Source: Candidatus Aenigmarchaeota archaeon LH_S4 (lineage in GTDB: Archaea > Aenigmatarchaeota > Aenigmatarchaeia > QMZS01). From it: a DNA stretch of 32,000 nucleotides. Positions 3,648 through 29,534 of the stretch are shown piece after piece. Made by a program: the position numbers and the translations under genes. The stretch is taken from the NCBI GenBank assembly GCA_023659975.1, contig JAGXOI010000003.1, positions 7,633 to 39,632 on the forward strand, read 5' to 3'. The notes under the pieces were generated by a model. That model had not been told where the DNA came from and searched no databases. It was given only the letters and a program-made list of their open reading frames with translations. Every line of letters starts with the position of its first letter. The stretch's first letter is position 1.

Positions 3648-3708
3648 AAAATTATCACTAGATAAGTTCTTTATCGCTGAATTTTGATATTATTTTTTCT
3701 TTATGCTA

Positions 3709-4851
3709 TTAATTACTATATCCAACAAATTCTAGTTTTTCACCCTTATAATCTAAAATTGTTTTCAAGTATTCTTCATAACTTTTTTCTACTTTCCCTA
3801 CAATTTTTGCTTTATGTTCTCCTCTTCTACTGATTAAATCAACAACCTCCTCCGCAGTTTCTATATCAGGAACAATATAAGCAAAACCCATACCCATATT
3901 TTGTTTAGTATATGCTTGTTTTGGATTCCATTTAGATTCTTGGGATAACAATTTATGGATTGGCAGTTCTTCCATCGGGTCGGTGATTTCAAATGAAACA
4001 TCTTGCCCAACCCTATTAAAATTATGCAATCCGTTTCCAGTAATATTTACTCCGTAAATATCTCTATTATCAAACTCTTTTCCAACCATAGCAGCTTCTA
4101 CCAAATAAAGTGCTGTTGGTGTTTGTAAGGCTTCTAAAACGGTTTTCCCCTCTAAAATTTCTGGTTTACTACCTAAACTAAACCTTCCTCTATATTGACT
4201 TTTCCATTCTTCCCTTGGTTCAACATCAGGAGTTAAAAGAGCATGTCTTGCTTCAGTATATTCATTGCTATGCAGGCCTGTTGAAGAAACACCAACTATT
4301 ATATTACCTGGCTTAGGATTTAAGTTTGGAATTTTATCTTTATCCACATATCCAGTCATAACTATTCCAAAATCTACACCTTTACCTTCTATACCTAATG
4401 AAATCATTTCGTCAAGAGAAGCCGTCTCTATTTTCCCCATATTTATATCCCAAGGGGCATTAGGAATTCTAATTCTTTCTAAAGCATAAACAAAACCATT
4501 CATAATTTCTCCCATTTTTTCTTCTTCAATTTGAGTTTGGCAAGCCATATAAATATCCACTTCGCTTGGGAAAGCATAAAGAATAGTTGCCATATCATTA
4601 GCGTTCATTGCAATACCATCTATTGGTGCTAATTTATAATTATCACTCCAAGCACTCAAATAAAGTTTTGTTCCATTTCCATCAACACAGTGTACGGAAC
4701 AGTAACCAGGATGAACCCTTTCATTATCTCTTAATTCAACAAAAAATCCTTTTGCTTTATCATTTCTCCTATTATATAACCAGGGAGCCTTACTAAGTGC
4801 TTTTTTTCCACTTTCAATTGCAATTTTTTCACTTATTTCATACTCACACAT
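3709..4851 (-). CDS. AIR synthase (PurM)-like ATP-binding protein
   Basis: PurM-superfamily motifs VDGNGTK (cf. DGVGTK), IAMNANDM (cf. AMCVND) and VGVSSTGLHSNEYTEAR (cf. G..SSG.HSNGYSL.R). 380 aa. Confidence 0.55.
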   Translation of the reverse strand: MCEYEISEKIAIESGKKALSKAPWLYNRRNDKAKGFFVELRDNERVHPGYCSVHCVDGNGTKLYLSAWSDNYKLAPIDGIAMNANDMATILYAFPSEVDIYMACQTQIEEEKMGEIMNGFVYALERIRIPNAPWDINMGKIETASLDEMISLGIEGKGVDFGIVMTGYVDKDKIPNLNPKPGNIIVGVSSTGLHSNEYTEARHALLTPDVEPREEWKSQYRGRFSLGSKPEILEGKTVLEALQTPTALYLVEAAMVGKEFDNRDIYGVNITGNGLHNFNRVGQDVSFEITDPMEELPIHKLLSQESKWNPKQAYTKQNMGMGFAYIVPDIETAEEVVDLISRRGEHKAKIVGKVEKSYEEYLKTILDYKGEKLEFVGYSN

Positions 4852-4897
4852 ACTTAAATTATATTCAAAATTTAATTAACCCAATAAATTGAAGACG

Positions 4898-5122
4898 CTA
4901 AGGAACAACATAAAGAATAGTATCCCCTCTGATAAGCATGTCTTTGTATTTTGTTATTTCTTCACTCCTTTTTAACTCAACATCTGCAAGCCACATATTT
5001 AGATGTAAATCCTGTGCTTTTAATGTACCTGAGATTTCTGTTCCATTTTTTAATTTCAATAGAATTCTTTTTCCTTTAGAGTTATTCAACGCGTCTATTG
5101 GTCTATTTTCTTCCATAAACAT
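4898..5122 (-). CDS. Archaeal Sm-like (LSm/SmAP) protein
   Basis: 74 aa. Sm1/Sm2 pattern: RILLKLKNGTEISGTLKAQDLHLNMWLADVE ... MLIRGDTILYV. Confidence 0.85.
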   Translation of the reverse strand: MFMEENRPIDALNNSKGKRILLKLKNGTEISGTLKAQDLHLNMWLADVELKRSEEITKYKDMLIRGDTILYVVP

Positions 5123-5226
5123 AAATAAAACTTTAAATAGATAACCTTTTTAATATAATCAAAGATTGGGTAGAAAAAAGTTGGTTAGCAAAAATTCTAA
5201 AATAATTAATTTTATCTTTGTAATTT

Positions 5227-7593: not shown

Positions 7594-7631
7594 TAAATTC
7601 CTGCTAAAACTTAAATTTTTTAACTAATTTT

Positions 7632-10607: not shown

Positions 10608-10628
10608 ATAATACTTATTGTAAATATT

Positions 10629-11186
10629 ATGTTATATATGGAACAAAAAAATTACAGTTTTGAAATTGTGCTTGGATTGTTGAGAAATGAAAATCACATT
10701 AGAGGTTTAGCTAAAATATTAGGTATAAATCATATGAGTGTAAGGAGGAAATTGAGCGATCTCTTTAATGAGAATGTTGTTGATTATAAAAAGGAAGGGA
10801 AAAATAAAAATTATTTTTTGAAAAAAACAATCGAGGCAAAGACCTACATTTTTATGAGTGAAGAATACAAATTGCTGAAGACTTTGAAAAGATATCCGGG
10901 TTTAAGAAGAATAATTGAAAATATTCAGAAGAATAATAAAATAAAACTTGCAATTTTATTTGGTTCTTATGCAAAGGGGAATGCAAAAAAAGAGAGCGAT
11001 GTAGATATTTTTGTAGATTCTGTAAGTAGAGATTTAAAAAAAGAACTGGAATTATTTGATCGCAGAATTAGTATCAAAATTGGAAGATATGAAAAACAAA
11101 ATATTCTTATAAAGGAAATCAAAAAAAATCATGTTATAATCAAAGGGGTTCAGAAATATTATGAGCAAAATAAATTTTTTGATTAA
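10629..11186 (+). CDS. wHTH + minimal nucleotidyltransferase (MNT-type) protein
   Basis: N-terminal wHTH-like segment (IRGLAKILGINHMSVRRKLSDL). Pol-beta-type NTase motif LFGSYAKGNAKKESDVDIFV (GS-x9-11-D-x-D). Confidence 0.75.
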   Translation: MLYMEQKNYSFEIVLGLLRNENHIRGLAKILGINHMSVRRKLSDLFNENVVDYKKEGKNKNYFLKKTIEAKTYIFMSEEYKLLKTLKRYPGLRRIIENIQKNNKIKLAILFGSYAKGNAKKESDVDIFVDSVSRDLKKELELFDRRISIKIGRYEKQNILIKEIKKNHVIIKGVQKYYEQNKFFD

Positions 11187-11438
11187 ACTGAAAAATCAGG
11201 GGAAACTTGAGTTGGTAGAGCCAAGCGAGGAACTAAAAGAAGCTTATCTAAGAAAGTCAGAAAGTTATCTGAATTCTGCAAAAATTTTATAGATTTTCAT
11301 ATAACTCGGGAAGATACCAACAGACTTATAAAAATCGCTGAAGAATTTAATGCAAAAATAATTGATTACATACAAAAACTGAATAATGAAGATATTCTTA
11401 GATACAGAGAAAAAATAAAAAAAGAAATAAGGAGTTGA
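11161..11438 (+). pseudogene. HEPN-domain gene remnant (frameshifted, internally deleted)
   Basis: ATG at 11161 overlaps the MNT gene end. The first piece, MSKINFLIKLKNQGKLELVEPSEELKEAYLRKSESYLNSAKIL*, stops at 11290-11292. The second piece is in another frame: DFHITREDTNRLIKIAEEFNAKIIDYIQKL...RS* (11292-11438). The central part of a normal ~125-aa HEPN domain is missing. Confidence 0.6.
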
Positions 11439-11472
11439 AAAAAGATATTGAAAAAAATGGGAAAAGGGATTA

Positions 11473-11612
11473 AGAGCTGAGAAAGTTGTTTATGGGTTGA
11501 AAGAGAAGACAATCATTCGCGAAGCGAATGGTGCACCATTTGCAAAGCAAATGCGTGAATGGGAAGCAAGTTATAAAGATTTGAATTTAGGGTTTAGGAT
11601 TGAGAAGGATTA
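11473..11612 (+). pseudogene. Displaced duplicate of the ileS 3' end (direct repeat copy 2)
   Basis: Reads LRAEKVVYGLKEKTIIREANGAPFAKQMREWEASYKDLNLGFRIEKD*, parallel to the ileS C-terminus VRAEKIVYGLGEKTIIREANGAPFAKQMRELEASYKDLNLAFGFERYVL*. It is preceded by an in-frame TGA (11449-11451). Confidence 0.8.
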
Positions 11613-11674
11613 AATTCCTTTATCTATTGAAAGTATAGTATAAGACTTATATATCTTCATTCCAATTGGAATGT

Positions 11675-11758
11675 ATGCAACAAGATGAAATTGATCTTAT
11701 TGATACCAAGCTAAAGAAAGAGCGAGATCTAAAGGTGCGGGATAGGCTAAGAATGTAG
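11675..11758 (+). pseudogene. Short N-terminal fragment of a transposase-like HTH protein
   Basis: 27-codon ORF MQQDEIDLIDTKLKKERDLKVRDRLRM*. The K-x-R-V-R-D-R-L segment resembles the N-terminal HTH region common in IS630/Tc1-type transposases. The rest of the gene is absent. Confidence 0.3.
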
Positions 11759-11821
11759 CAATCATTATAGCCAGTGCCAAACAAACAATTTATAATATTT
11801 CATCAAATATTCCCCCTCCCC

Positions 11822-12721
11822 CTATTTTTTATGATTTTTATTATAATTTAACTCCACTTTCTTGTCCGGTGATATAAAATAAAGAGAATCACCCAAGTAA
11901 TCGGCAAATTCTGGAATTTTGCTTAAAGATAAGCTCCCAGCAAACCCATAGAATGCTGCATCGTAGACATATTCAATCTCACCGCCCATTTTTTTGAACA
12001 GGTTTAACTGAGTTTTGTTACAAGGCTGCCTAAGCATTACAATTATTGGAGCTATTTGATCTGTTCCTGTTTTTTTCTCATCTATAATCTGTTTATCAAG
12101 AGAATCATCTATCCTATTAGTATTCTTATCAAACGCTTCTGGTACTGGAGGAAGTTCTGGAACAAATTCCGTCTGCTGAATGAAGCCAGAACGATACATT
12201 GCCTTTTCAATTGTCTTGTTTAATTCGCGCCTCTGATTTAACTTTGCAACACCAGCCTTCACCCCCCACTCATCGCTTCCCTCAACTAACAACATCGCTT
12301 TCTCCTCATTCCAGGGATTCCTCAAAATCTCTAAAATTCCTTTGTTTTGTCCAGGATATTCCTCAGTTACCCTTGTCGCATTTGTTATATTATATACTTC
12401 CTCTAAGACTTTATTTGAATTTGGCGTGCCAACTACAATTAAATTATAAGAGTGTTTAAAACTTTCAATTTCTTTGGAGGAGATAATGTCTGGCTTATTG
12501 CCTGTTAGATTTTTCAAATTCGCTGCTATCGCTTCTGCACTTTCTTTCTCTATTTGAGTTGCGTTTTCACCAATCACGATTACCGTATTTTCCTTAAACA
12601 CCTCTGGAAAATCACTCAGCTCTAATTCCTTTGGTAGTGGTGTAGATATCTGCCAGAGAAAATATCCAGTAATAAGAGAAACCACAATTACTATTCCTAG
12701 TATTAAGATTTTCTTCTTCAT
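11822..12721 (-). CDS. Signal-anchored secreted protein with a C-terminal subtilase-propeptide (inhibitor I9)-like domain
   Basis: N-terminal hydrophobic anchor KKKILILGIVIVVSLITGYFLW. Central LIVVGTPNSNKVLEE / NPWNEEKAMLLVEGSDEWGVKAG module. The C-terminus IIVMLRQP...KKMGGEIEYVYDAAFYGFAGSLSLSKIPEFA fits the I9 propeptide pattern. No protease domain is attached. Confidence 0.5.
   Translation of the reverse strand: MKKKILILGIVIVVSLITGYFLWQISTPLPKELELSDFPEVFKENTVIVIGENATQIEKESAEAIAANLKNLTGNKPDIISSKEIESFKHSYNLIVVGTPNSNKVLEEVYNITNATRVTEEYPGQNKGILEILRNPWNEEKAMLLVEGSDEWGVKAGVAKLNQRRELNKTIEKAMYRSGFIQQTEFVPELPPVPEAFDKNTNRIDDSLDKQIIDEKKTGTDQIAPIIVMLRQPCNKTQLNLFKKMGGEIEYVYDAAFYGFAGSLSLSKIPEFADYLGDSLYFISPDKKVELNYNKNHKK
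12250..12475. repeat. ~225-bp dispersed repeat copy 1 (inside CDS 11822-12721)
   Basis: Aligns by eye at roughly 90% identity with 13260-13485. It includes the identical run ccccactcatcgcttccctcaactaacaacatcgctttctcctcattccagggatt. Confidence 0.85.
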
Positions 12722-12805
12722 AATTTATTACTTTTATCTTATATATTAATTTAGAAAAATCAAATAATATAACAGTGTAAATTTTAATCACTCCCTCTTT
12801 AAATT

Positions 12806-12826
12806 GACAGAGGACGAGCCTCTGTC
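12806..12826. other. GC-rich hairpin between the two paralogous secreted-protein genes
   Basis: gacagagg-acgag-cctctgtc: an 8-bp perfect stem with a 5-nt loop in otherwise AT-rich spacer. It is downstream of CDS 12943-13398 and upstream of CDS 11822-12721 (both minus strand). A terminator or regulatory role is a guess. Confidence 0.3.
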
Positions 12827-12942
12827 GCCTCATTAGGATCTCAATTCATCCTTAAGCCAATAAATAATGTTAATAAGGAGTATTGGCCTTATTAATATCA
12901 AACAAAGTATCTGTCGATATCAAAGAACCAATACATCATATT

Positions 12943-13398
12943 TCATTCCCCCTTCTTCTCGTAGCTTATTATATTAATTGCTTTTTGGGTATATGTATTG
13001 GATTCTCCAGCTTCTGGGATAATAATTTCAGTTCTTGTTATATAACCCTTGACTTTTACTTTTGTCCCTTCGCCTAATTTAATTAAATCTTGGGATTTAT
13101 TTCCTATTGGCATATACATATCTCCATCACTTGCTTGAATAACCCACATCTTCGCAGACACAAATGATACTTGTTTTATTTCTCCTTGAATTAGTTCCAT
13201 ATTTGAGGAGATAAGCATGCTTGCACCTTTTACCTTCTTAAAATCAATTAATTTCACACCTCCTGCCTTCACTCCCCACTCATCGCTTCCCTCAACTAAC
13301 AACATCGCTTTCTCCTCATTCCAGGGATTGTTCAATATCTCCAAAACCCCTTTATTCTCTCCTGGATATTCCTCTGTTACCCTTGTCACATCTGTCAT
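12943..13398 (-). CDS. 5'-truncated paralog of 11822-12721 fused to a different C-terminal beta-rich domain
   Basis: TRVTEEYPGENKGVLEILNNPWNEEKAMLLVEGSDEWGVKAG is nearly identical to the neighbouring protein. Homology continues upstream of the ATG without a start (KKIESFKYSYNLIVVGTPESNKVLEEVYN, open to ~13500). There is no signal anchor, so it may be a pseudogene. Confidence 0.45.
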   Translation of the reverse strand: MTDVTRVTEEYPGENKGVLEILNNPWNEEKAMLLVEGSDEWGVKAGGVKLIDFKKVKGASMLISSNMELIQGEIKQVSFVSAKMWVIQASDGDMYMPIGNKSQDLIKLGEGTKVKVKGYITRTEIIIPEAGESNTYTQKAINIISYEKKGE

Positions 13399-13485
13399 AT
13401 TATATACTTCCTCTAAGACTTTATTTGATTCTGGCGTGCCAACTACAATTAAATTATAAGAGTATTTAAAACTTTCGATTTTTTT
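13260..13485. repeat. ~225-bp dispersed repeat copy 2
   Basis: Partner of 12250-12475, in the same orientation. Confidence 0.85.
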
Positions 13486-13568
13486 ATAGGTAGAATTTTA
13501 TAACACAAAAAACTTATTTCTTATAATCACTTACAGTTGAGTAGTGAAAAAGAAGATGTGCTAAATTT

Positions 13569-14078
13569 TCATTTAGATGCTTTTCGTTCCATCCTGTTTA
13601 TGAAATAGTTAATTAAAAATCCAAAAGATGCGCCGATTATGAACAGAAACGCAAAAATTGAGGCCATCCCGAATAAACCACCCCCAAATGAATAACCAAC
13701 AAACATCCATATTGACACGTAAACCTCGGCTATAAAAGTGAAAGGTATCAAAAGAAATTCTTTTTGCCAAGAAACCCAATAAAAAAGAGAAAGGAAAGCC
13801 ATTAAAACCACAATCACTATTGATACTATCAAACATTTATGCAATCTTTCCTTTATGGGTGACCGATACATAAAAGATAAAATTATTCCTATTATTACAC
13901 CGAGAAAAATATTACTTAAAAAAGATTTACCCAAAAAAGGATATATGTCCTTAAGAAGAGGTATATGGGTATATATAAAGAGGGATAGGAAGAGAAGTAG
14001 GAAGGGAAGTAAAATTCCAATCACAACCCCCGAAAGAGCTCCCGCAACAATCCAGTGTTTGAATGAAACATTTTCCAT
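13569..14078 (-). CDS. Hypothetical multi-pass membrane protein
   Basis: 169-aa ORF with about five hydrophobic helices. No recognisable motif. Confidence 0.5.
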   Translation of the reverse strand: MENVSFKHWIVAGALSGVVIGILLPFLLLFLSLFIYTHIPLLKDIYPFLGKSFLSNIFLGVIIGIILSFMYRSPIKERLHKCLIVSIVIVVLMAFLSLFYWVSWQKEFLLIPFTFIAEVYVSIWMFVGYSFGGGLFGMASIFAFLFIIGASFGFLINYFINRMERKASK

Positions 14079-14284
14079 AATTATGATATCCGATTATATA
14101 TAGTTTTTATTAGACTTGTTGCCAATTAACTTTTTTAAAATCCTCTTAATTTACGATAAATATCAACATAGCTTTTAGGAATAGTAGTTAATGAAGTCAG
14201 TAACTGGTATATCTACGGCAGAATTCTAGAAAGAGGAGCAGGCTATCCGGGGCATCAAGAGACTCAGAATAACAACCGTATAAG

Positions 14285-14982
14285 GTGATTCCAAAAACTG
14301 TTTTGCATGGCGGAACAGCAATATTGAAATGTTATTCAGGAAACTGGTTCTCAGGAGATATAGATGTTTATTTAGAGAAAGATATAGAAAAAATAGAAGA
14401 GTTTTTTGGGAAATTAAAAAAATTAGGTTTTGAAATTGTTAAAAAGAACCTCAAAGAAAACTCTCTTTTTTCTGTATTAATGTTTAATAACACCGAAATC
14501 AGATTTGAGGCTGTGTTCAAAAAAGTAAAAGGAATAATTAAAGAATACGAGACTTGTGAAGAATCCCTGATAACTGTTTATACTTTACTGATTTAATAAA
14601 GGAAAAGGTGGATACTTATCTTGGTTTACATAATGCAATGAGTTTCCATAATTTGTGGGAGCAGGAAACATGCCCGGTAATAATAACAACAAGAGAAGTA
14701 AGAACAGGAATAAGAAAAGTTTTCAGTTCTAATGTCCTTCTTAGAAGAATTTCCAAAAAATATCTCTTTAATTATGATTACTATAAATATGGAGATTTTG
14801 TCTTGCCTGTAAGTGATATAGAAAAAATATTTATAGACTAAATATATTTCAAAGAAATCAGAAGTGAAATAACAAAAAAATTCAAAAAGAAAATTAACCA
14901 CAAAAAATTGGACCAATACCTAAAAAAATATCCTAAGAAATTCAGAAATTATGTATTAGAGTGGTTAACCTCTGAAGATTAA
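14285..14982 (+). pseudogene. AbiEii-like nucleotidyltransferase (type IV TA toxin family) remnant, broken into three pieces
   Basis: VLHGGTAILKCYSGNWFSGDIDVYL fits the AbiEii motif (GGTAL..Y...R.S.DID). The frame is lost near 14580 and resumes as FTDLIKEKVDTYLG in another frame. An in-frame TAA at 14839-14841 is followed by 47 more open codons ending at 14982. The N-terminus is also missing (stop at 14270-14272). Confidence 0.45.
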
Positions 14983-15002
14983 ATCAAATTTCAAATTAAA
15001 TA

Positions 15003-15491
15003 ATGAACTTAATCCTAAAAAAGGGGTGCAGAGAAAAACTGAGAAAACCTTTGGGAAAATTGGTTAAAGATAGGCAGGAATTGCTAAAAGAACTAAAAAA
15101 CAAGGAAATAATAGTTGTTGGGGATAAAGTAACTCAAACCCTTCTTAAACTTGGTTTAAAACCAAAATTAGCAGTAGTTGATTATAAAATTAAAAGAAAA
15201 GAGATAAAATATGATTATAAACAAAAATTTAAAAAAGTTCTGTTTGCAGAAAATAAAGTTGGGACAATTTCAGCTCAAGCAATGGAAAAAATAAAAGAAT
15301 CCCTGAAATATAAGAATTGCCTTCTGGAAATTGGTGGAGAGGAAGACTTGCTTGTTTTGCCTGTCATATTGGAATTAGAAAATGGGATTATCTGTTATGG
15401 ACAGCCGGATAGAGGAATTATTGTTGTTGAAATAGATAAAGAAAAAAAGGAAGGAATTAAAGAATTATTAAATGAGTGCTTTATTTATTGA
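15003..15491 (+). CDS. DUF359 family protein = archaeal GTP-dependent dephospho-CoA kinase
   Basis: 162 aa. IIVVGDKVTQTL, LAVVDYKIKR and GGEEDLLVLPVILELENGIICYGQPDRGIIVV match DUF359 hallmarks. Confidence 0.7.
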   Translation: MNLILKKGCREKLRKPLGKLVKDRQELLKELKNKEIIVVGDKVTQTLLKLGLKPKLAVVDYKIKRKEIKYDYKQKFKKVLFAENKVGTISAQAMEKIKESLKYKNCLLEIGGEEDLLVLPVILELENGIICYGQPDRGIIVVEIDKEKKEGIKELLNECFIY

Positions 15492-15515
15492 AACTTATAT
15501 TTTAAAATTATCATT

Positions 15516-17303
15516 ATGTTTATGAAACCAAGATTTTTGTTGATTTTATCGGTGGTTATTATCCTATTTAGTTTAACCCCTACCTTAGCGCTAAAAGATA
15601 TAACAACTTATCTTCCTGCCGTCCAGGAGACAGATTATGGTTATGAAGGATCTCTTGCTACAATGACTATAAATATAAAGGAAGGAGGGGGCCATGTTTA
15701 CGTTGATACTTGGCCTTTAACTAAAATTGATACTCAGGCTTCAGCAAGGATTGCAAAACAGGTTGCCTGTGACACTTTGTATTTGGATTGCTCAAACTAT
15801 GACTTTTTTTATACAATCAGGTCAGAGGCACAGATTGTTGGGGGTCCAAGTGGGGGTGCAGCGATGACTGTTGCAACCTTGGCTTCCCTTCTTGACGTAG
15901 AAATTAACAATGATATTCTCTTAACAGGAACAATAAATTTAGATGGCTCAATAGGTCAAGTCTCTAAAGTTATTGAAAAAGCAGAAGCTGTCGCAGAGAA
16001 TGGAGACACATTTTTAGTTCCCTATGGACAGAGTGTTATTGAAATAGAGGAAACAACAAAAGAGAAGTCAGGACCTCTTGTTATTGAAGAAAAAACCCCA
16101 AAAAAAATAAACTTAAAAGAATATTCAAAAGAACACTGGAATTTAACGGTTAAAGAAATTAAAACTGTCCAGGAAGCATTCAAATACTTCACAGACTATG
16201 AAATTAAAACAGAAGATATAGAATTTAAAAAAACAGAAGAATACCAGAGGGTTATGAAAAAATTGGCAGATAATTTGCTCAACTATTCCGCTAAGTTAAA
16301 AAGAGAATGTGAAGAAAAACTCAGTGATTCAAAAATAGGTTACAACTATGAAAAACAAGTTTCTGCCCTCTGCGATTTATCTTTAGACAAAGCAAGAGAA
16401 AATTATGACAAAGAGAATTACTACTCTGGTGCATCATTAGCCTTCTCAAAATCAATTTCTTATAAATATGGGATTAATTTAATCTCTTTACTGGAGATAG
16501 AAGACAAAAAAACTTTTTTAAGGGAATACTTAAGAAGAGTAGAAGAAAAAATTTTTGAAGTTAACTCTTCAAACATAGAATTGTATGCAATTACAGAAGA
16601 AAGAATTTCTGAGACTCAGAAAAACATTGAAATTGCCTGGAAACATTATTATAATGGGGATTATATACAGGGAATTTATTACGCTTCTTTGGCAGACACG
16701 AGATTATATACTGCAAGTTTATGGAGGAATTATTCAAATCAGTTCCCGGATTATATAGAAACAACACAAGATTTAAAGGAGGTTTCTAATAATATACTCT
16801 CAGAGGTTTCTTCAATTTTAACTTACATTTCACTCACAACTACAAATAATTTTTTAGAGAAGGCAAATAATTTTTTGGATAAAGCAAGAGACAATTACAA
16901 TTCTGAGAATTATTATGCTGCGATTATAATTGGATTAAAGGCCAGGGCAAATGCAGAATTGGCTTCAGAGACTTTGCAAAGCAATATAGACTATTTAATA
17001 GAACTGCATAGAAAGAGGGCTTTGGTTTCAATAAATAAAACAAATTCCATAATTGGACAGAGTTATTTTGAATATGCGGAAATTTTGGAGGAAGATAATA
17101 AAGGTAGTTCTCTAATCTATTACACCTATTCGGAAAAACTTTCAAAACTAAATCAGTTGTTGAATAAAAAAATTGTGTCTGAAGAAATAGAACCAGAAAA
17201 ATATTTATCTCCGGTTTCATGCAATTATGAGAAAGCAATTCCTTTCTTTTTAATTTCTCTTGTCCTCTGTTCTTTTGCTGGTTTTATTGTTGGTAAATTA
17301 TGA
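15516..17303 (+). CDS. Secreted, C-terminally anchored S16 (Lon proteolytic domain)-like serine protease
   Basis: N-terminal signal/anchor FLLILSVVIILFSL. Lon-type catalytic region VGGPSGGAAMTVATLASLL...LLTGTINLDGSIGQVSKVIEKAEAVAENG (Ser...Lys dyad context). C-terminal TM FFLISLVLCSFAGFIVGKL. Three internal helical repeats (ARENYDKENYYSGASLAF / AWKHYYNGDYIQGIYYASLA / ARDNYNSENYYAAIIIGLKA). Confidence 0.65.
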   Translation: MFMKPRFLLILSVVIILFSLTPTLALKDITTYLPAVQETDYGYEGSLATMTINIKEGGGHVYVDTWPLTKIDTQASARIAKQVACDTLYLDCSNYDFFYTIRSEAQIVGGPSGGAAMTVATLASLLDVEINNDILLTGTINLDGSIGQVSKVIEKAEAVAENGDTFLVPYGQSVIEIEETTKEKSGPLVIEEKTPKKINLKEYSKEHWNLTVKEIKTVQEAFKYFTDYEIKTEDIEFKKTEEYQRVMKKLADNLLNYSAKLKRECEEKLSDSKIGYNYEKQVSALCDLSLDKARENYDKENYYSGASLAFSKSISYKYGINLISLLEIEDKKTFLREYLRRVEEKIFEVNSSNIELYAITEERISETQKNIEIAWKHYYNGDYIQGIYYASLADTRLYTASLWRNYSNQFPDYIETTQDLKEVSNNILSEVSSILTYISLTTTNNFLEKANNFLDKARDNYNSENYYAAIIIGLKARANAELASETLQSNIDYLIELHRKRALVSINKTNSIIGQSYFEYAEILEEDNKGSSLIYYTYSEKLSKLNQLLNKKIVSEEIEPEKYLSPVSCNYEKAIPFFLISLVLCSFAGFIVGKL

Positions 17304-18019
17304 TTCTTCCGAATATAATAATTTCAATTCCTCTTTTTAATTTAATTTTAATCTTTTTTTGTATTTTTATTGCTATTATAGGCTACTTTAAAAAAATCCT
17401 TGACTTTAAGTCCATGCTCTTTACCAGTTTTTTTGCTGTTTTTTTCCTTTATTTTTTCCCTTTATACTGGTTTGCTTCCCTATTGATTCTATATATAACT
17501 ACCTCTTTTGCAACTCAATACAAAAGAGAATACAAGATGGTTGCTCACAGGAAAGGAAGAGAACTAAAAAACCTGATTAGCAACCTTCTCCCTTCTCTAT
17601 TATTTTCTTTTGTTTATTTATTCTTTCCAAAACCAATAATTTATTTTGCTTTTCTCTGCGGGATTTCCTGTGCCTGCGCTGACACTCTCTCATCAGAGAT
17701 AGGACAATTAAGTAGGAAAAATCCTAAGTTGATTACAACTTTTGAAGAAGTTAAAACAGGAACTGAAGGGGCAGTTTCTCATTTGGGGTGGGGAGTTGGC
17801 TTTATCGGTGCTTTAATAGTTTCTCTTCCTTCTCTTTACCTCAGTACCAGTTTCTTTGTTTTGGCAATAATAATTGGTTTCCTTGGATGTAATCTAGATT
17901 CTTTTATTGGAGCAAGATTTGAATTAAAAGGAAAATGTTCTAATAAAACAACAAATCTGATTGCAACAACTTCTTCAAGTATTCTTGGCTTGATTATCTT
18001 TATTCTTCTTTTAAGTTAA
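17300..18019 (+). CDS. DUF92/TMEM19-family integral membrane protein
   Basis: CACADTLSSEIGQLS, GTEGAVSHLG and NLDSFIGA match DUF92 signatures. Its ATGA overlap with the upstream gene suggests translational coupling. Confidence 0.65.
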   Translation: MILPNIIISIPLFNLILIFFCIFIAIIGYFKKILDFKSMLFTSFFAVFFLYFFPLYWFASLLILYITTSFATQYKREYKMVAHRKGRELKNLISNLLPSLLFSFVYLFFPKPIIYFAFLCGISCACADTLSSEIGQLSRKNPKLITTFEEVKTGTEGAVSHLGWGVGFIGALIVSLPSLYLSTSFFVLAIIIGFLGCNLDSFIGARFELKGKCSNKTTNLIATTSSSILGLIIFILLLS

Positions 18020-18152
18020 CCATCTGGTTAACTTTGAATTTGTTTTATAAATGCTTTTTCTTCAACCATATTATCCTCAAATATCTTCTTTTCAACTTAA
18101 TTTTCTTTGCCAACTCTTCAGCCTTCAAAGGAATTGGTTTTATATTTAATTT

Positions 18153-18221
18153 CTAGGCAAGCCGGGAAATCTTTGGTGGATAAATATATTTGAACTAGCT
18201 TTCTTGGGACTTTATCTGTAA
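18153..18221 (-). other. Mini-locus carrying the 26-nt RNase P-like 5' segment plus a CR-V-like motif (function and strand unknown)
   Basis: The minus strand reads UUACAGAUAAAGUCCCAAGAAAGCUA-(29 nt)-CCCGGCUUGCCUAG. The first 26 nt are identical to 1175-1200. AAAGAUUUCCCGGCUUG resembles CR-V (ACAGAAnnnGGCUUA). Confidence 0.3.
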
Positions 18222-18390
18222 AGTAAAAATCAAGGTTGCTGTTATAATGTATGGATTTGATGTTAGAAACACCAAACAGGAAAAACAAATTAACCAGATT
18301 AATTTTGCTCTGGGTCTAATTTATGAACAAATGAATCTCTGTGAACATATTCGTAGAATCTCATACTCTTATCTAAAGTCTAATAAAACT

Positions 18391-19332
18391 TTACTCAAAT
18401 TTATTAACAACCTTTGAATCCTTATTCTTTAGCAAAACAATTCTTGAATTCTCTGACCTATCTTCAAATTTGTAATTACTTTTTTTTGAAATTTCCAAAG
18501 CAAACTTTTTTATCTCTTCAAAATCAGGCATTTTTTCATCTCCCAATCTCTTTTTTGAGTAACCCAAACTCATAAACGCTTTTACTTCAACAAAATCAGG
18601 GTTCCCCTTTTCTATTAATTTTAGATATCCTTTTATATCTTCAGAGGAATTGTTAAGACCTTTAATTAAAGTTAATCTTAAAATTCTTCTACCTTTAAAA
18701 CTGTGCATTATTTCCAAACTTTCGTTGAATTTATTCCAAGCATTTTCTCCTATGGGTCTACATATTTCTAAAAATTTTTCTTCATTTGGGGCATTTAGAG
18801 AAATATACAACTGAAAATTTTTCTTTGGTTTTAACAAAGACAAAACATCTGGCCTTGTTCCATTAGTTACTAAAAAAACTGTTCTACCTTTATTTGTTAG
18901 ATAGTCGATCAATTCTATAAGTTTTGGATAAAGAGTTGGCTCCCCTGATAATGAAATTGCAAAATGGTTTGGCTCAAGAGCTTCTTTTAACTTTTTTTTG
19001 TCAGAGATACTCCCTCCAAACCCAGAAAGTAATTTTTTCCTCTGTTCAATTAGTTTTTCTACAATTTCCCCTGGTTTGTCAATTTCTTCTGGAATTTTGT
19101 TCCTAAAAAGTTCATTTGGAGACCAGCAAAATAAACATCTCAGGTTGCAGAAAACAACACTTGGTGAAAACTGCATACATCTGTGGCAGTCAATCCCATA
19201 AAATTTTTCTTTGTAGCAGAAACCCTCCCCTCTTAAACTTCTTTTTGTCCACTCACAAATCTGTACTCCTGAATGGTTAAATATTTTATAGTGTTTTTTT
19301 TCTAATTCTTTTCTCAATTTTTCATTTAACAT
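18391..19332 (-). CDS. taw1: tRNA 4-demethylwyosine synthase (radical SAM, Taw1/TYW1)
   Basis: Radical-SAM cluster CNLRCLFCW. An upstream Cys cluster (CYKEKFYGIDCHRC) for the second Fe-S site. Length and layout fit Taw1. Confidence 0.8.
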   Translation of the reverse strand: MLNEKLRKELEKKHYKIFNHSGVQICEWTKRSLRGEGFCYKEKFYGIDCHRCMQFSPSVVFCNLRCLFCWSPNELFRNKIPEEIDKPGEIVEKLIEQRKKLLSGFGGSISDKKKLKEALEPNHFAISLSGEPTLYPKLIELIDYLTNKGRTVFLVTNGTRPDVLSLLKPKKNFQLYISLNAPNEEKFLEICRPIGENAWNKFNESLEIMHSFKGRRILRLTLIKGLNNSSEDIKGYLKLIEKGNPDFVEVKAFMSLGYSKKRLGDEKMPDFEEIKKFALEISKKSNYKFEDRSENSRIVLLKNKDSKVVNKFE

Positions 19333-19372
19333 AATCTAATAATTCATTAATCAACACAGAAATAAAATTAAA

Positions 19373-19981
19373 CTATTTCAATTTTTCTTCTTCTAATTTA
19401 AAACCTTTTTCTGTAATCTCAACAATCCAGAGTTTTTCTCCTCCAGAAGCCATATCTCTCTGCGTAGCACTTTTTATAGCCTCTCTTATCAGCTTTTTTC
19501 CCTGCTCAATTGTCATTCCTTCCCTAAAATCTTTTTCCAGGACTCCATAAACAAAGGGAGAACCTGAACCTGTAGAAACATAATTCTCTTTCATACAGGA
19601 ACCTGTTGGATCAAACGAGAATATATAAGATCCGGTTGAGTCTATTCCACCAATAATAATTTGTGTATAATAAGGGAACATTCTTCTTGAGTACATAATC
19701 TGGGATAACAAATGTGCTACAGCACTAATCTTCATTTCTTCATTCGTCTCCAGTTTGTGAAGTGAAATTTCGGCTTTCAAAATATTTATTAATTGCTGTG
19801 CATCACTTACCATTCCTGCAATTGTTATCCCAATTTTATCATCTATCTTAAAAACTTTCTGAACATCCTTGTTTACTATCATATTACCCATAGAAGCTTT
19901 GGATTCAGAGGCAAGTAAAATACCTTCTTTACAAACCATTCCTACTGTCGTTGTCCCTGTGTTTAGTAATTTACCTTCCAT
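19373..19981 (-). CDS. psmB: Proteasome subunit beta
   Basis: A short propeptide is followed by the active-site TTTVGMVCKEGILLASE. 202 aa. Confidence 0.9.
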   Translation of the reverse strand: MEGKLLNTGTTTVGMVCKEGILLASESKASMGNMIVNKDVQKVFKIDDKIGITIAGMVSDAQQLINILKAEISLHKLETNEEMKISAVAHLLSQIMYSRRMFPYYTQIIIGGIDSTGSYIFSFDPTGSCMKENYVSTGSGSPFVYGVLEKDFREGMTIEQGKKLIREAIKSATQRDMASGGEKLWIVEITEKGFKLEEEKLK

Positions 19982-20152
19982 AATATTTACTAAACTTTTA
20001 AATAGTTAAGGCTTTTATTGAACAGATAAAAAGGCTTAAAAAATGGTATGCACCTTTATAACTCTTTTATTTAATGCAAAAATCAAACTAACATATTTTT
20101 CCAAAGCATAGCAGTTAAATTAAATGGTTAATAAATTGCGGAAACTAATTAT

Positions 20153-20372
20153 GGGCTCGTGGTCCAGTGGCTAAGATTTCAATAGCAAACGTCGCGTTCA
20201 CAGGAGCTTTTCTTTCTTTAAGAAAAATAATTAAATAGTGGTGGTAATCTAAACTCTGAAATTCGCGAAGATCGAGAGTTCAATGCAACTTTTCTCAGGA
20301 AAAGTTTTTTCTCTGAAAAAACAAGAACTGCACTGAAATTGGTGCAGAAGAGGGGGAATCTCTCCGAGCCCA
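20153..20372 (+). tRNA. tRNA-Val: tRNA-Val(CAC) with three putative introns
   Basis: Exons 20153-20176, 20190-20202, 20263-20281 and 20356-20372 assemble into a 73-nt cloverleaf. Acceptor GGGCUCG/CGAGCCC, A73, D-stem GUCC/AGAC, anticodon stem UCGCG/CGCGA, loop UUCACAU, T-arm GAGAG-UUCGAAU-CUCUC. Introns: 13 nt (D-arm), 60 nt (canonical 37/38) and 74 nt (T-loop). Confidence 0.7.
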
Positions 20373-20469
20373 TCATTCAATATACAATCTAAAGGTTTTC
20401 CACAACAACTCTATTATTCTCCTACAGTATTCACATTTAACTCTAATTTTATTTTTAGTTTTTATTATT

Positions 20470-20991
20470 ATGTTAGATATTATAATTAATAGTTTTTGGT
20501 TGATTATTCCTGCTTATTGTGCTAACCTCTCCCCAGTTTTATTAAAAGGAAAATATCCAATAGATTTCAGAAAGAATTTTGTTGATGGATTTAGATTGTT
20601 TGGGGATGGAAAAACAATAGAGGGTCTCTTTGGGGGTGTTTTTTTCGGAATTTTTATAGGATTATTACTTATTTATCTACAGCCTTTTATAACTCAATTC
20701 TACGCTTTACATTTTCAGCACAATTTTTTGACAATCTTCTTATTAACCACCGGAGCAATTTTAGGAGATATAGTTGGTTCCTTTATTAAGAGGAGGTTTA
20801 GAATTAAGAGAGGAGATCCAACACCTATTTTGGATCAACTAGATTTTCTAATTTTGGCTTTAGTTATTGTTTCTATTATAATAGATTTAAAGTTGTCTTG
20901 GGTAATTTTCCTTGTAATAGTTACCCCTCTACTCCATTATTCTGCAAATATATGCGCTTTTCTACTGAAATTAAAGAGCAAACCTTGGTAA
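20470..20991 (+). CDS. carS: CDP-archaeol synthase (CarS, DUF46)
   Basis: IPAYCANLSPVLLKG..PIDF...DGFRLFGDGKTIEG matches the CarS N-terminal signature. 173 aa with several TM helices. Confidence 0.75.
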   Translation: MLDIIINSFWLIIPAYCANLSPVLLKGKYPIDFRKNFVDGFRLFGDGKTIEGLFGGVFFGIFIGLLLIYLQPFITQFYALHFQHNFLTIFLLTTGAILGDIVGSFIKRRFRIKRGDPTPILDQLDFLILALVIVSIIIDLKLSWVIFLVIVTPLLHYSANICAFLLKLKSKPW

Positions 20992-20994
20992 TTA

Positions 20995-23028
20995 TTATTT
21001 CTCTTTTTTAGATTTTTTCTCCCTCCAGTTTTCTTTACTCTTACACTTTGGGTCCAAGCACATATTAAAAGGTCTTCTGCCTTTCCTGATTATTTTTAAA
21101 ATTGGTGTGCTACAATCCTTGCAGATTTTTCCTGTTTTTTCTATTCCGCAATTTCTTGGTAGAGGGAAGGAATTTTTACATTTAGGGTAGTTAGAACATC
21201 CGATAAATCTTGAGCCATTATACATCTTTATAAATTTCAGTTGTCCACCACATTTACATTCTCCTACTACGTTTTGTTTTTCTTTTGTTTCTTCAACAGA
21301 ACTTAAGAGGGATTTACCAATCTCTTTTTCCTTAAACTTTCCAAAAGTTTTTTCAAGTATTTCCTTTGCTTCATCCAAAACCTTTTCTCTCTTTTTTTTG
21401 TCTTGCTCAACCGCTTCCATCTCTTTCTCAAATTTTGCTGTGAGGTCTTCAGACAAGAATTCTGGAGCATATTTATCTAAAGTTTTTACAACACTTCTAC
21501 CCAAATTTGTAACTTTTATTTTTTGTCCTTCACAATAATTCCTATCGTACAACGTTTTAATAATCATAGCTCTTGTACTTTTTGTACCAAGATTTCTTTT
21601 CTCTAATTCTCTTACAAGACTTGCCTGAGTATATCTATTTGGTGGCTTGGTTTCTTTTTCCAACAAATTTAATTTATCAACAATCAAGACTTCCTCCTCT
21701 TTTAAATCTGGGAGTTCAATTTCCTCTATTTTTGCAAAAGGATAAAATTCAAGCCAATTCTTTTTTATTGTTTTTGAACCAGAACAATAAAATTTATATT
21801 TTTCTATATTTGCAAAAATTTTTACAGATAACCTTTCTGCAGGCTCTCCGAAAACAGAAAAGAATCTGTGAACGATTAGAGAATAAATTTTTTCTTCTTC
21901 ACCTTTGAGTTTTTTTGGAAGTTCTCCTGTTGGATGTATTGAAGGGTGTGCGGGATCACTCTTTTTTCCTTCCATTGGTTTTAATTCTTTTTTTAACAAT
22001 TTTTTTCCAACCTCAAAAATTTTACTTAATTTTTCAATAATTTTTTTATAGTCTATTGAGGAGGGTATTTTTTGGGAACTTGTTCTTGGATAAGAAATCA
22101 AACCTTGTAGGTATAATCTCTGTGCTATTGCCTGTGTTCTTGATGGACTAAAACCAAAAACTTTATAGGCTTCTAATTGTAGGTTGGTTAAGTTGAAAGG
22201 TACAGGAGGATTAAGGCGCATTTTTTTTGTTTTTATTTCAGAAACAACAGCATTTTTGTCTTTACACTTTCTAAATATTTTTTCAGCATTTTCTTTCTCC
22301 CAAATTTTACTTATGCTGTAATTAAAAGTTAGAGGTTCTGGAAATTCTTTTTCTTCTGATTTTGAAGTTAGAAAATTTAATTGCCAAAAGGGAATAGGAA
22401 CAAATTCTTCTATCTCTTTTTCTCTATTTGCAAGAATTGCCAAGGTTGGCCCCTGGACTCTGCCAGAAGAGAGCAAGTAATATCTATTTGAAGCAGTTTT
22501 TATGGAAGCTGTTAATGCTTTGGTAATATTAACTCCGTAGAAATAATCTAGATAATGTCTGGTTAAACCAGATTCAGCAAGCCCACGATTATAACCTTTT
22601 TTTCTCTTCAGAAATGCTTTTTGAAGTTCATCTTTTGTTAAGGTGGAAAATTCCATTCTCGAGACTTTTGCTTTTTTGCAGAGGAAACGGTAGATATTGT
22701 ATCCAATAACTTCTCCTTCAATATCTAAATCTGTAGCAATTGTTACTTCCTTAGAAAACTTTCCTAAATAAGATAGGAGTTGATAGAAATTTTTTGTGAA
22801 TTTATTTTTCTTGAAACTTGGTTGCCACTCCAAATCAAAATTTGGGTACTTTTTTCTTATTTTATCTTTTAAAGTGAAAAGGTGACCTGCCGCTGATGCA
22901 ACAATAATTCCAGAGGGGGATTCATAGTAATTAGTAGAATATTTTTTCTTTGTAGTATATTTTTCTAAAATAGACTCAGCAATTTTTTTCGCTGCTGTAG
23001 GTTTCTCTGCAAGGATTAACTGAACCAT
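20995..23028 (-). CDS. topA: DNA topoisomerase, type IA
   Basis: Toprim start LILAEKPTAAKKIA and DLDIEGEVIG. Catalytic-Tyr region ISYPRTSSQ. C-terminal Zn ribbons (CKCGG...GCSNYPKC, CKDCS...CLDPKC). Confidence 0.9.
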   Translation of the reverse strand: MVQLILAEKPTAAKKIAESILEKYTTKKKYSTNYYESPSGIIVASAAGHLFTLKDKIRKKYPNFDLEWQPSFKKNKFTKNFYQLLSYLGKFSKEVTIATDLDIEGEVIGYNIYRFLCKKAKVSRMEFSTLTKDELQKAFLKRKKGYNRGLAESGLTRHYLDYFYGVNITKALTASIKTASNRYYLLSSGRVQGPTLAILANREKEIEEFVPIPFWQLNFLTSKSEEKEFPEPLTFNYSISKIWEKENAEKIFRKCKDKNAVVSEIKTKKMRLNPPVPFNLTNLQLEAYKVFGFSPSRTQAIAQRLYLQGLISYPRTSSQKIPSSIDYKKIIEKLSKIFEVGKKLLKKELKPMEGKKSDPAHPSIHPTGELPKKLKGEEEKIYSLIVHRFFSVFGEPAERLSVKIFANIEKYKFYCSGSKTIKKNWLEFYPFAKIEEIELPDLKEEEVLIVDKLNLLEKETKPPNRYTQASLVRELEKRNLGTKSTRAMIIKTLYDRNYCEGQKIKVTNLGRSVVKTLDKYAPEFLSEDLTAKFEKEMEAVEQDKKKREKVLDEAKEILEKTFGKFKEKEIGKSLLSSVEETKEKQNVVGECKCGGQLKFIKMYNGSRFIGCSNYPKCKNSFPLPRNCGIEKTGKICKDCSTPILKIIRKGRRPFNMCLDPKCKSKENWREKKSKKEK

Positions 23029-24326: not shown

Positions 24327-24899
24327 TTATCTTGCCCCTTCAGCCTCTTTTTCATTTCTCTGTCTTTCTGCTACAGCATAACTTTCTGTGCTGTTTTTAC
24401 TTGCATTTATAAATTCTTCTGCCAGAACTTCATACATTTTTTTCTTTTTATTAAAAGTTTTTGCATAACTTCCCTGAACAAGTCTTCTCAAGGCAAGGTC
24501 TAATCTCTTTTTTGGAGAGCAAATTGAAGGTTTTCTTGCAACAATCCCCCCAACCTGTTGGGAAACCGTTAATTCATAGGGTGCAGAATTTTCTATTGCC
24601 CTGATAAAAATTTCTATTGGATTTTTCTTTGTTTTTTCAGATATAATATCAAAGGATTTTTCAACTATATTATAAATTGTCTGGTATTTTCCAGTACACC
24701 TTCCAGAAGTGAGTTTATGTTTTTTTCCTCTGTGTCCAGGTATCATCAGATGGGTTATAAGTTTTTCAATAATATGCTTATTTTTTGTTCTTCCATCTGT
24801 TTTTGGTAGAATTCTCTGTTCCAGATTAATATAACTCTTCAGACCCAAGTCATTTACTTCTACATTAAATACCCACTTTCCAAACAGTTTAAATTCCAT
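24327..24899 (-). CDS. rps7: Ribosomal protein uS7
   Basis: KLFGKW...VNDLGLKSYINL start, NPIEIFIRAIENSAP, QQVGGIVARKP, and ALRRLVQG. 190 aa. Confidence 0.9.
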   Translation of the reverse strand: MEFKLFGKWVFNVEVNDLGLKSYINLEQRILPKTDGRTKNKHIIEKLITHLMIPGHRGKKHKLTSGRCTGKYQTIYNIVEKSFDIISEKTKKNPIEIFIRAIENSAPYELTVSQQVGGIVARKPSICSPKKRLDLALRRLVQGSYAKTFNKKKKMYEVLAEEFINASKNSTESYAVAERQRNEKEAEGAR

Positions 24900-24944: not shown

Positions 24945-25094
24945 ATAAAAAAGGCTCAGTTAAGCGAAGATTATGAAGCTGGTTTTGGCTTGAGCCTTTT
25001 GTCAATTACTTCATAAAAAAGGCTCAGTTAAGCGAAGATTATGAAGCTGGTTTTGGCTTGAGCCTTTTGTCAATTACTTCATAAAAAAGGCTCA
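24945..25094. repeat. 68-bp tandem repeat, 2 identical full copies plus a 14-nt partial third
   Basis: The unit ataaaaaaggctcagttaagcgaagattatgaagctggttttggcttgagccttttgtcaattacttc occurs at 24945-25012 and 25013-25080, with a restart at 25081-25094. Each unit contains a 10-bp inverted repeat aaaaggctca/tgagcctttt around a 32-nt loop. Confidence 0.95.
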
Positions 25095-25118: not shown

Positions 25119-25988
25119 ATGTTAAAAATTTTAAATCATTTTAAAAAGGCCTGGGAGGCTTACAAGAGAAATTTTCCCCCTATTATTATTTCTATAGCTT
25201 TAATAATAATAATTTTTTCCTTGCTTGTAGGAGTAGGTTTTTTTGCTATTTTAGGAACAGAAGGTGCAACAGAAGTAGTGAATCATTACATAATAAGTGA
25301 AGGAACCACAGATTTTGAATCTCCAGAATTTTTAAACTCTATAAATATGGAAAATATTGGTTTCTTCTTTTTATTTTTAATTTTAGGAGTGATTATAACG
25401 ATATTCCTTGAGGCTGGATTTTGGGGGATTTGTTTAAAGGGGATTAAAAAGAAAGTTTCTACAGGTCTCTTTTTTACTACAATTAGAGAGAGGGGTATTT
25501 CTTATTTTTTAGCAAATATCTTAGTACTCTTAATAATAGTTGCAATTTCACTTCCTCTGATATTGATTTTTTATGGTTTGTTTTATCTATTACAAGCTAA
25601 TTTATTTCTTTCTGTAGTCTATCCAATGATCTTTTTATTAATAGCACCTTTTTTTATTTTTATTTTTCCAGCGGTTATAGAGGGAAAACCTATTTTTAAT
25701 TCGGTATCACAAAGTTTTATTTTTGGAAAAAAATATTATTTGGATTTAATCTTATTACCAATTTTGTTCTATGTTTCATCTTTGTTGAGTTTTATTCCGA
25801 TAGTGGGAGTTATTCTAAATTATTTTTTGATTGTACCTCTACTTGTTCTTTTGATTTGCTCTTTTTATCTAGAAGTCTCCAAGTCAGGCAGAGAAAAGAA
25901 ATCTAGAAAAACAAAGAAAACAGGAAAATCTGTGAGGGGGAGGGGCAAATCAAAAACTAGAAAGAGAGTTGTTAAGGGAGAAAAGTGA
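25119..25988 (+). CDS. Hypothetical multi-pass membrane protein with a polybasic C-terminal tail
   Basis: About 6-7 hydrophobic helices. Tail SGREKKSRKTKKTGKSVRGRGKSKTRKRVVKGEK. Confidence 0.55.
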   Translation: MLKILNHFKKAWEAYKRNFPPIIISIALIIIIFSLLVGVGFFAILGTEGATEVVNHYIISEGTTDFESPEFLNSINMENIGFFFLFLILGVIITIFLEAGFWGICLKGIKKKVSTGLFFTTIRERGISYFLANILVLLIIVAISLPLILIFYGLFYLLQANLFLSVVYPMIFLLIAPFFIFIFPAVIEGKPIFNSVSQSFIFGKKYYLDLILLPILFYVSSLLSFIPIVGVILNYFLIVPLLVLLICSFYLEVSKSGREKKSRKTKKTGKSVRGRGKSKTRKRVVKGEK

Positions 25989-29316: not shown

Positions 29317-29488
29317 TGGGCTCGAGGAGATTTCCAATTGGCAAATCGGAAAATTGCAAATCTTTGATTTGCCAGATTTGAATTCAGGAAAGTTTTTTAA
29401 AAACTTCACTCCTGATCTCCGCGATGTCAACGCGACGTCCTAACCAACTATCCCAAGATTATAAAAATCCTGTCTAGACCACGAGCCC
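29317..29488 (-). tRNA. tRNA-Val: tRNA-Val(GAC) with three putative non-canonical introns
   Basis: Exons 29488-29474, 29447-29409, 29382-29375 and 29328-29317 assemble into a 74-nt cloverleaf. Acceptor GGGCUCG/CGAGCCC, A73, D-arm GUCU-AGUUGGUUA-GGAC, anticodon arm UCGCG-UUGACAU-CGCGG, T-arm AGGAG-UUCAAAU-CUCCU. Introns of 26, 26 and 46 nt each contain a strong hairpin. Junctions can slide by 1-5 nt because of repeated bases. Confidence 0.8.
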
Positions 29489-29534
29489 ATAATTAATTAC
29501 TAAGTTTTTATCTCTTAATTTAAAAATAAACCGA

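Follow-up and report, generated by a model that had tools for sequence, protein, structure and literature searches.

A 22-nt remnant of an IS608-like left end beside a 1.5-kb deletion in an Aenigmarchaeota genome, a probable scar of insertion and subsequent deletion

IS608 of Helicobacter pylori, which encodes a Y1 HUH transposase (TnpA) and TnpB, provides the closest described system for the locus analysed here. Its left cleavage site CL is the tetranucleotide TTAC, which lies outside the element, on the 5′ side of the left hairpin at a distance of 19 nt from the IPL foot, its right cleavage site CR is TCAA, 10 nt from the IPR foot, and the tetranucleotides GL (AAAG) and GR (GAAT) are located 5′ of the hairpin feet (PMC3201880, PMC5934647). 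TnpB elements encode an omega-RNA scaffold at the tnpB 3′ end and right end (PMC8612924, PMC10055086). Palindrome-associated transposable elements (PATEs) of Haloquadratum and Geobacillus occur in several copies that contain both hairpin ends and the omega-RNA-bearing 3′ region and have no intact ORF (PMC3119063, PMC10055086). We report here that an exact 26-nt inverted repeat in an archaeal genome very probably consists of a 4-nt host TTAC and the first 22 nt of an IS608-like left end, and that the shorter of its two loci is most plausibly the scar left by an insertion and a later deletion.

The window, a stretch of 32,000 nt of Candidatus Aenigmarchaeota archaeon LH_S4, has a G+C content of 31%, encodes archaeal proteins (CDP-archaeol synthase, proteasome subunit, Trm1 and TYW1/Taw1) and has Aenigmarchaeota MAGs as its nearest database relatives. 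Positions 1175-1200 of the plus strand and 18196-18221 of the minus strand both read TTACAGATAAAGTCCCAAGAAAGCTA, an inverted repeat that is exact over its 26 nt and ranks first among the inverted repeats of the window; at up to 3 mismatches the sequence has 2 matches in the window, with 0.00 expected from 100 dinucleotide-preserving shuffles. The repeat can be extended to 38 nt at 87%, the extra part being A/T-rich background only. The exact reverse complementarity reported in the preliminary description is therefore confirmed, far above chance, and comparison of the flanks likewise bears out the abrupt loss of identity at both edges. The first copy (long locus) is flanked by a CDP-alcohol phosphatidyltransferase gene and a cold-shock-domain gene, which are 758 nt apart, and the second (short locus) is situated in a 371-nt gap between the convergent genes for DUF92 (17300-18019, +) and TYW1 (18391-19332, -). 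The motifs AAAGATTTCCCGGCTTG, CCCGGCTT and CATTATAAC were all found at the short locus where they had been placed: on the minus strand, AAAGATTTCCCGGCTTG occupies 18174-18158 and begins 21 nt downstream of the 26-nt copy, the CCCGGCTT core begins 29 nt downstream of it, and CATTATAAC starts 28 nt upstream. An assembly artefact at the short locus, which had been raised as a concern, is not seen, as a separately built Logan contig of SRR14170905 (L002/L010) holds both junctions and is 100% identical to the window across the short locus over 6,895 nt. Because this contig has both junctions, and because both flanks of the short-locus copy are colinear with a single syntenic TYW1...DUF92 neighbourhood in the relative L027, a misjoin of the two loci does not account for the short locus.

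A search for the repeat in other genomes, made with its 20-nt core ATAAAGTCCCAAGAAAGCTA against a species-representative genome collection, identified 11 further loci and hence a multicopy sequence. All of them belong to two MAGs, Candidatus Aenigmarchaeota archaeon LH_S6 (8 loci) and LH_S7 (3 loci), and several sit at contig ends, as expected of repeats. With the two loci of the window they make up the 13 distinct loci of the left-end alignment, in which the upstream flanks are unrelated and homology begins right after TTAC (12/13) or TTAT (1/13). Downstream of TTAC the copies share AGATAAAGTCCCAAGAAAGCTA, followed by a CCGACTTTAGTCG-type hairpin and then by the interior of the long locus. 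Nine distinct right ends terminate at GGAGAGTGTCAA (...GTGTCAA; TCGA in L005) and continue into unrelated flanks, which show no target-site duplication.

One copy, L020, is full-length, with the left end followed by tnpA and then by tnpB. Its 129-aa ORF at 808-1197 (-) matches PF01797 (Y1_Tnp, E=3.6e-41) and starts 95 nt past the TTAC/left-end junction that bears the 26-mer, and the ORF adjoining it matches PF01385 (tnpB). The 399-aa TnpB of L023 (P0121), containing PF01385 and PF07282, is 92% identical to the TnpB fragment of L020, and its gene ends 16 nt before the TCAA terminus; a TnpA homologue (P0001) was found in L022, where the contig stops before tnpB. Short forms of about 50 nt at L012, L013 and L005:2734 are made up of the 22 nt of the left end, a single hairpin and AGTGTCAA. 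The copies thus display the characters of the IS200/IS605 family: a Y1 TnpA, a tnpB overlapping the right end, a fixed tetranucleotide target without duplication, no terminal inverted repeats, similar subterminal hairpins in direct orientation at both ends, and occurrence in multiple copies (13 loci) with unrelated flanks and presence/absence variation, the short-locus stub being missing at L027. Judged from its sequences, the family is a new, uncharacterised IS608-like member of IS200/IS605 in Aenigmarchaeota.

The likeness to IS608 extends from the insertion 3′ of TTAC, the lack of target duplication and the TCAA right terminus to the imperfect bulged-T hairpins in direct orientation near both ends, the distance of about 19 nt between TTAC and the left hairpin on its 3′ side, and the gene order tnpA, tnpB. 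In the window element, the 19 nt that come after TTAC have AAAG as their last four bases (16-19 nt after TTAC, just 5′ of the left hairpin), and the foot of the predicted bulged-T hairpin comes one base later. Since AAAG and GAAT occur at the positions of the IS608 guide tetranucleotides, they may by analogy serve as such here, so that the Aenigmarchaeota element appears to keep the TTAC/TCAA and AAAG/GAAT logic of the Helicobacter paradigm. Nevertheless, the two differ in that the host here is a DPANN archaeon, that the end sequences are unrelated beyond the short motifs, and that TCAA lies 7-8 nt from the predicted hairpin foot instead of 10 nt. Unlike IS608, some copies of the present family (L023-L026) carry a small zinc-ribbon-like or 45-aa ORF in place of tnpA, and for the present family TnpA activity is a prediction. 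In L023 (2960-3001), L015 and L019 (both at contig ends) the replacing ORF is short, zinc-ribbon-like and starts with MKIKCKRCGYEW right after the left end, and in L024-L026 (L024 2892-3029) it is a 45-aa DUF7557/VapB-like ORF that overlaps the start of tnpB.

A second, related IS605-type family, gene-less copies included, interrupts the AIRS_C-domain gene in L004 (strain GCA_023658875.1), where the copy at 12712-13236 is inserted at window position 4598/4599; other copies lie at L004 268-600 and L005 2200-2520. Its left end is AATTAACCAAAGGCAAGAAAACTCCCGATTTTAATCGTGGAG and its right end ...GGAGTAGATTACT or ...CTCCTGACTTTAGTCGTGGAGTAGATTACT, it sits after ...CAT or ...TAT and not after TTAC, and its right end resembles that of an element with a 407-aa TnpB at L004 19243 onward.

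The long locus (1175-1526) is a 348-nt gene-less, PATE/MITE-like derivative (1179-1526, +) of an IS200/IS605-family element, because its ends, its tnpB 3′ homology and the full-length tnpA/tnpB copies match. The boundary between the element and the target tetranucleotide TTAC at 1175-1178 (+) was placed by the 13-locus comparison. The left-end subterminal hairpin, TACCGAC-TTTA-GTCG-T-GTA with one bulged T, at 1199-1217 (+) was given by DNA folding and has homologues in other copies. The leftmost 95 nt of the element correspond to the L020 left end as far as the start codon of tnpA (window 1179-1269), a degenerate interior follows, and the segment at 1383-1526 (+), homologous to the tnpB 3′ end and right end, is 89% identical to L023 4073-4216, an interval made up of the final ~128 nt of the 399-aa TnpB gene and the 16 nt past its stop. 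By analogy with other TnpB elements, an omega-RNA scaffold would be expected in this segment. The right-end hairpin at 1497-1519 (+; DNA fold), CTCCCGAC-TTTA-GTCG-T-GGAG, is adjoined by GAAT, and the terminal TCAA (1523-1526, +) comes 7-8 nt past it. The sequence CCGACTTTAGTCGTG is present at 1201 and again at 1501 as a direct repeat, and both occurrences fold as bulged-T hairpins; BHB-type introns or insertions with a 15-bp target duplication had been considered for this repeat and were replaced by IS-end hairpins after the tnpA/tnpB copies had been found. Four more near-full-length copies of the 348-nt form, 87-97% identical, occur at the unrelated loci L011, L014, L016 and L021.

The long locus resembles PATEs in having both hairpin ends and the 3′ region predicted to bear the omega-RNA, in its lack of an intact ORF and in its several copies, and it would be mobilisable in trans. 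The short locus departs from this pattern: it has kept only 22 nt of the left end, lacks a hairpin as well as the right end, and presumably cannot be mobilised.

Directly beside the right end of the long element, the remnant of a metallo-beta-lactamase-fold gene occupies 1527-1690 (-), its intact counterpart being a 234-aa Lactamase_B ORF in L005; 523 bp of this gene are missing in the window, L004 and L006 and intact in L005. Window positions 1523-1530 join the terminal TCAA straight to TGAGAAG, which in L005 (9161-9705) follows ...catgTTAC, so that the deletion begins exactly at the right-end cleavage point (TCAA|) and finishes directly behind a TTAC of the gene. Such a pattern would be expected if TnpA had joined the right-end site to a nearby target in a one-ended reaction, which is possible, and the deletion fits a transposase-made event of the kind associated with IS elements.

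At the short locus, the decisive comparison is with L027 (GCA_023658975.1), a relative whose TYW1 is 98% identical to that of the window and which has the same neighbourhood (topoisomerase, CarS, proteasome, TYW1 ... DUF92). Synteny of the short-locus junctions, which had been proposed as a check, reveals in L027 an uninterrupted site, ...gatttttactTTAC|ttattggtg, in which the TTAC is already there and the 22 nt are missing. On the minus strand, the window matches L027 at 98.6% up to ...CTTGATTTTTACTTTAC (L027 5116, ...TTTAC), and the 98.6% match resumes at GTTCAAATATATTTATCCACC... (L027 6623). Between these flanks the window has only AGATAAAGTCCCAAGAAAGCTA, and L027 has 1,506 bp of host DNA comprising the remainder of a CbiQ-like ORF, an ORF of 121 aa and a gene pair for NTase and HEPN; no IS sequence was found in the 1,506 bp. 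It follows from this comparison that the TTAC at 18218-18221 (-), present at L027 5113-5116, is host target DNA and the left cleavage/insertion site of the IS, and that the IS contributes to the 26-mer only the 22 nt at 18196-18217 (-), with which the left end begins. The identity of this stub with window 1179-1200 and with the 11 LH_S6/LH_S7 loci, like the earlier existence of the TTAC and the loss of 1.5 kb, is a direct observation. The stub is truncated where the left-end hairpin would begin.

On one side of the stub, 18222-18364 (-) is the 5′ remnant of the CbiQ-like ORF, 98.6% identical to L027 4833-5116; the interrupted ORF corresponds to L027 4969-5259 (PF02361, CbiQ). On the other side, 18020-18195 (-) is host intergenic DNA, 98.6% identical to L027 6623-6917, that contains AAAGATTTCCCGGCTTG (18158-18174) and a start-less 35-codon frame, and its counterpart in L027 lies between the HEPN gene start and the DUF92 end. 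It is unlikely that the L027 arrangement is itself the derived one, given its coherent genes and the lack of IS sequence there. Two other origins of the DNA following the stub were considered and rejected. The GTTCAA after the stub could have been the last right-end bases left by an extreme internal deletion, but GTTCAAATAT is host DNA in L027; a relic of an AIRS_C paralogue (GGCTTGCC occurs in both) was likewise discarded, as tblastn gave nothing better than E=0.6.

According to the preferred reading, a copy of the element, either full-length or of the 348-nt gene-less form, would have inserted 3′ of TTAC in the CbiQ-like ORF between TYW1 and DUF92, pointing towards DUF92. A deletion would then have taken the element from nucleotide 23 onward together with the 1,506 bp of adjacent host DNA, that is, the rest of the CbiQ-like ORF, the 121-aa ORF and the NTase/HEPN pair, and would have joined the 22-nt stub to a sequence that by chance contains CCCGGCTTG. 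The copy at 1175-1200 would be the same junction on an intact 348-nt derivative element. We infer that insertion came before deletion, since none of the relatives compared has an intact element at this TTAC, the intermediate that such an order predicts. As the junction on the DUF92 side has neither microhomology nor a TnpA-type TTAC/TCAA motif, the deletion was probably produced by blunt illegitimate joining of the end-joining type. The earlier idea of a relic is thereby upheld in part: the short locus is a truncated remnant of a second copy of the long-locus entity, joined to its present neighbour by a rearrangement (the 1.5-kb deletion), and the RNase P identity given to that entity has to be abandoned. 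The stub should be inert, neither mobile nor a structured RNA and not recognised by TnpA, because the subterminal hairpin needed by TnpA is missing. A chance transcript may nevertheless run through it.

End joining is known to yield templated filler insertions, and the 1.5-kb TYW1/DUF92 deletion could in principle have been closed by a patch of 22 nt taken from an IS left end at another place in the genome, with no insertion at this site; the DUF92-side junction without microhomology is in line with such a repair. However, the patch would start exactly at nucleotide 1 of the element and abut a pre-existing TTAC, the specific target of the element, and random filler is unlikely to recreate a genuine insertion junction, so that we regard this explanation as highly improbable. 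Like other IS-associated adjacent deletions and solo-end remnants, the short locus has one IS-end fragment abutting a host deletion, but the endpoint lies inside the left end and not at its tip, where a transposase-made deletion would put it. It is conceivable, though on balance unlikely, that the element's own machinery, and not passive decay, produced both deletions beside element copies, the one of 523 bp at the long locus and the one at the short locus, which removed 1.5 kb along with most of the element. The 523-bp junction would then be an exact one-ended TnpA signature, with the right-end cleavage site joined to a same-strand target, and the stub would have arisen by that process too, with a less regular outcome. 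If this were true, IS608-like elements would actively remove host DNA from the already reduced genomes of DPANN archaea.

The TYW1-DUF92 intergenic region is a hotspot. L017, whose DUF92 is 95% identical, contains a same-family copy in opposite orientation ~390 nt downstream of DUF92, and the NTase (PF01909)/HEPN (PF05168) pair found at L027 5926-6759 is absent there and deleted in the window. In L027 this module is bracketed by the similar 30-nt sequences aaggcatttattaaacagatgcaaaactaa and aaagcatttataaaacaaattcaaagttaa.

Inverted IS copies can mediate inversions, and the two copies of the window are in inverted orientation. They had accordingly been considered as the scar of a 17-kb inversion, or as its substrate, between copies at 1200 and 18196 that might still be flipping. 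This is extremely improbable, as an inversion with breakpoints in both copies was not seen and the relatives are colinear with the window: L004 over 1-10593, L001 over 7378-18110, and L027 over 17300-23028 (DUF92 to topoisomerase). A homologous event would moreover leave two intact copies rather than a 22-nt stub replacing 1.5 kb, and 26 nt is very short for homologous recombination. The related strain L003 does have an inversion-type junction elsewhere, from 18116 (+) to 4532 (-), but this junction has other breakpoints and its own 8-9-nt microhomology. In this 98.8% identical strain (Logan SRR14170873; 3447-3471), ...GCCAACTC (18116, +) is joined to AAATTGAAGAAGAAAAAATGGGAGA (4532-4508, -), which belongs to the AIRS_C-domain gene; the two sides share GCCAA(A)CTC, a similarity of 8-9 nt, and 25 nt are available beyond the junction.

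The preliminary description had started from RNase P RNA, taking the 26-mer for CR-I and the downstream CCCGGCUUG for CR-V, with which it would form a P4, so that the short locus would be a relic or a paralogue; a mini catalytic core was weighed together with these. The resemblance of AUAAAGUCC to CR-I and of CCGGCUU to CR-V is visual only, short A/U-rich look-alikes being all that is shared with archaeal RNase P RNA (Rfam RNaseP_arch, RNaseP-T). With the gathering score, Rfam returned neither RNase P nor any other family in the whole window; at E<=10 there was no match in 1000-1800, and in 17950-18450 only chance-level SNORD14 (E=1.1) and mir-186 (E=5.9), no RNase P. In contrast to a single-copy housekeeping gene whose P4 pairing is conserved in relatives, the supposed gene lacks a covariance-model match at either locus, is multicopy and transposase-associated, carries tnpA/tnpB in its full-length form, and has a motif pair that is not kept in relatives: in L027 a distance of 1.5 kb separates the two look-alikes, which only the deletion has brought together. 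Compared with shuffled sequences, RNA folding was distinctive neither for the long locus (z=-1.77) nor for the short locus (z=-0.24), the latter folding no better than its shuffles. We therefore consider the chance of an RNase P origin to be practically nil.

Each of the motifs behind that reading has another identity. The long locus is one of many IS200/IS605-derived copies, and the CR-I-like AUAAAGUCC is the linker between the TTAC cleavage site and the left-end guide/hairpin. Unrelated host DNA upstream of the HEPN gene supplies the CR-V motif, which in L027 is separated from the TTAC by 1,506 bp and adjoins the stub only because 1.5 kb were lost; the P4 pairing thus came about by accident through the deletion. 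The TATA-like cattataac belongs to the CbiQ-like ORF remnant. Neither locus should carry an RNase P RNA annotation, and the 26-nt repeat needs no new biology.

Functions of the short locus as RNA or as a target are hardly more probable. A plus-strand transcript had been suggested as antisense to the left end; this finds no support, the stub being absent from L027. Another conceivable role is that of a TTAC-plus-target decoy or target for a TnpB-omega-RNA, given that TTAC would be the expected TAM of the associated TnpB (as extrapolated from PMC8612924 and PMC10055086) and that the stub provides TTAC and 22 nt. Nevertheless, none of the right-end flanks seen, which would correspond to the guides, matches AGATAAAGTCCC, and all intact left-end junctions of the genome would be targeted equally well. 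Furthermore, the 22 nt missing from L027 are not conserved, and no structured or promoter-like feature stands out by folding or by a sigma-70 promoter/terminator scan, the latter being uninformative for an archaeon. A functional element of either kind is thus exceedingly unlikely. The comparison with split tRNAs of Nanoarchaeum, in which trans-pairing handles are complementary leaders on two gene halves, also fails, as the copies are not arranged in this way; no tRNA or RNA half was found beside either copy, and the repeat is an IS terminus at 13 loci.

The element is therefore encountered in three states of decay, from ~1.9 kb with tnpA and tnpB through the 348-nt gene-less form to remnants of ~50 nt and 22 nt, and such elements remodel intergenic and accessory regions of these small genomes. 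The gene-less copy with its predicted omega-RNA region could be of interest for the mining of TnpB systems, the short-locus finding itself being ordinary.

Several other features of the window were recorded. Two tRNA genes missed by ARAGORN, at 20153-20373 (+) and 29318-29490 (-), each appear to be interrupted three times by introns, which lie in the regions of the D-loop, the anticodon loop and the T-loop. Once the three segments are removed, the gene at 29318-29490 is called tRNA-Val(GAC) and the one at 20153-20373 most often tRNA-Val(CAC); the two share a 25-nt 5′ region including an upstream AATTAT. Diverged direct-repeat pairs with a spacing of ~1,010 nt occur at 10417-10593/11429-11605 (84%) and 12238-12480/13248-13490 (88%). 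In the former pair it is the second class-I aminoacyl-tRNA synthetase gene whose 3′ end is duplicated, and exactly at that point L004 has a TnpB element, the strains varying in their arrangement there. Finally, a perfect tandem duplication at 24945-25080, with a 68-nt unit (ATAAAAAAGGCTCAGTTAAGCGAAG...), fills part of the gap between the ORFs at 24327-24899 (-) and 25119-25988 (+), and each unit holds the inverted repeat AAGGCTCA...TGAGCCTT.
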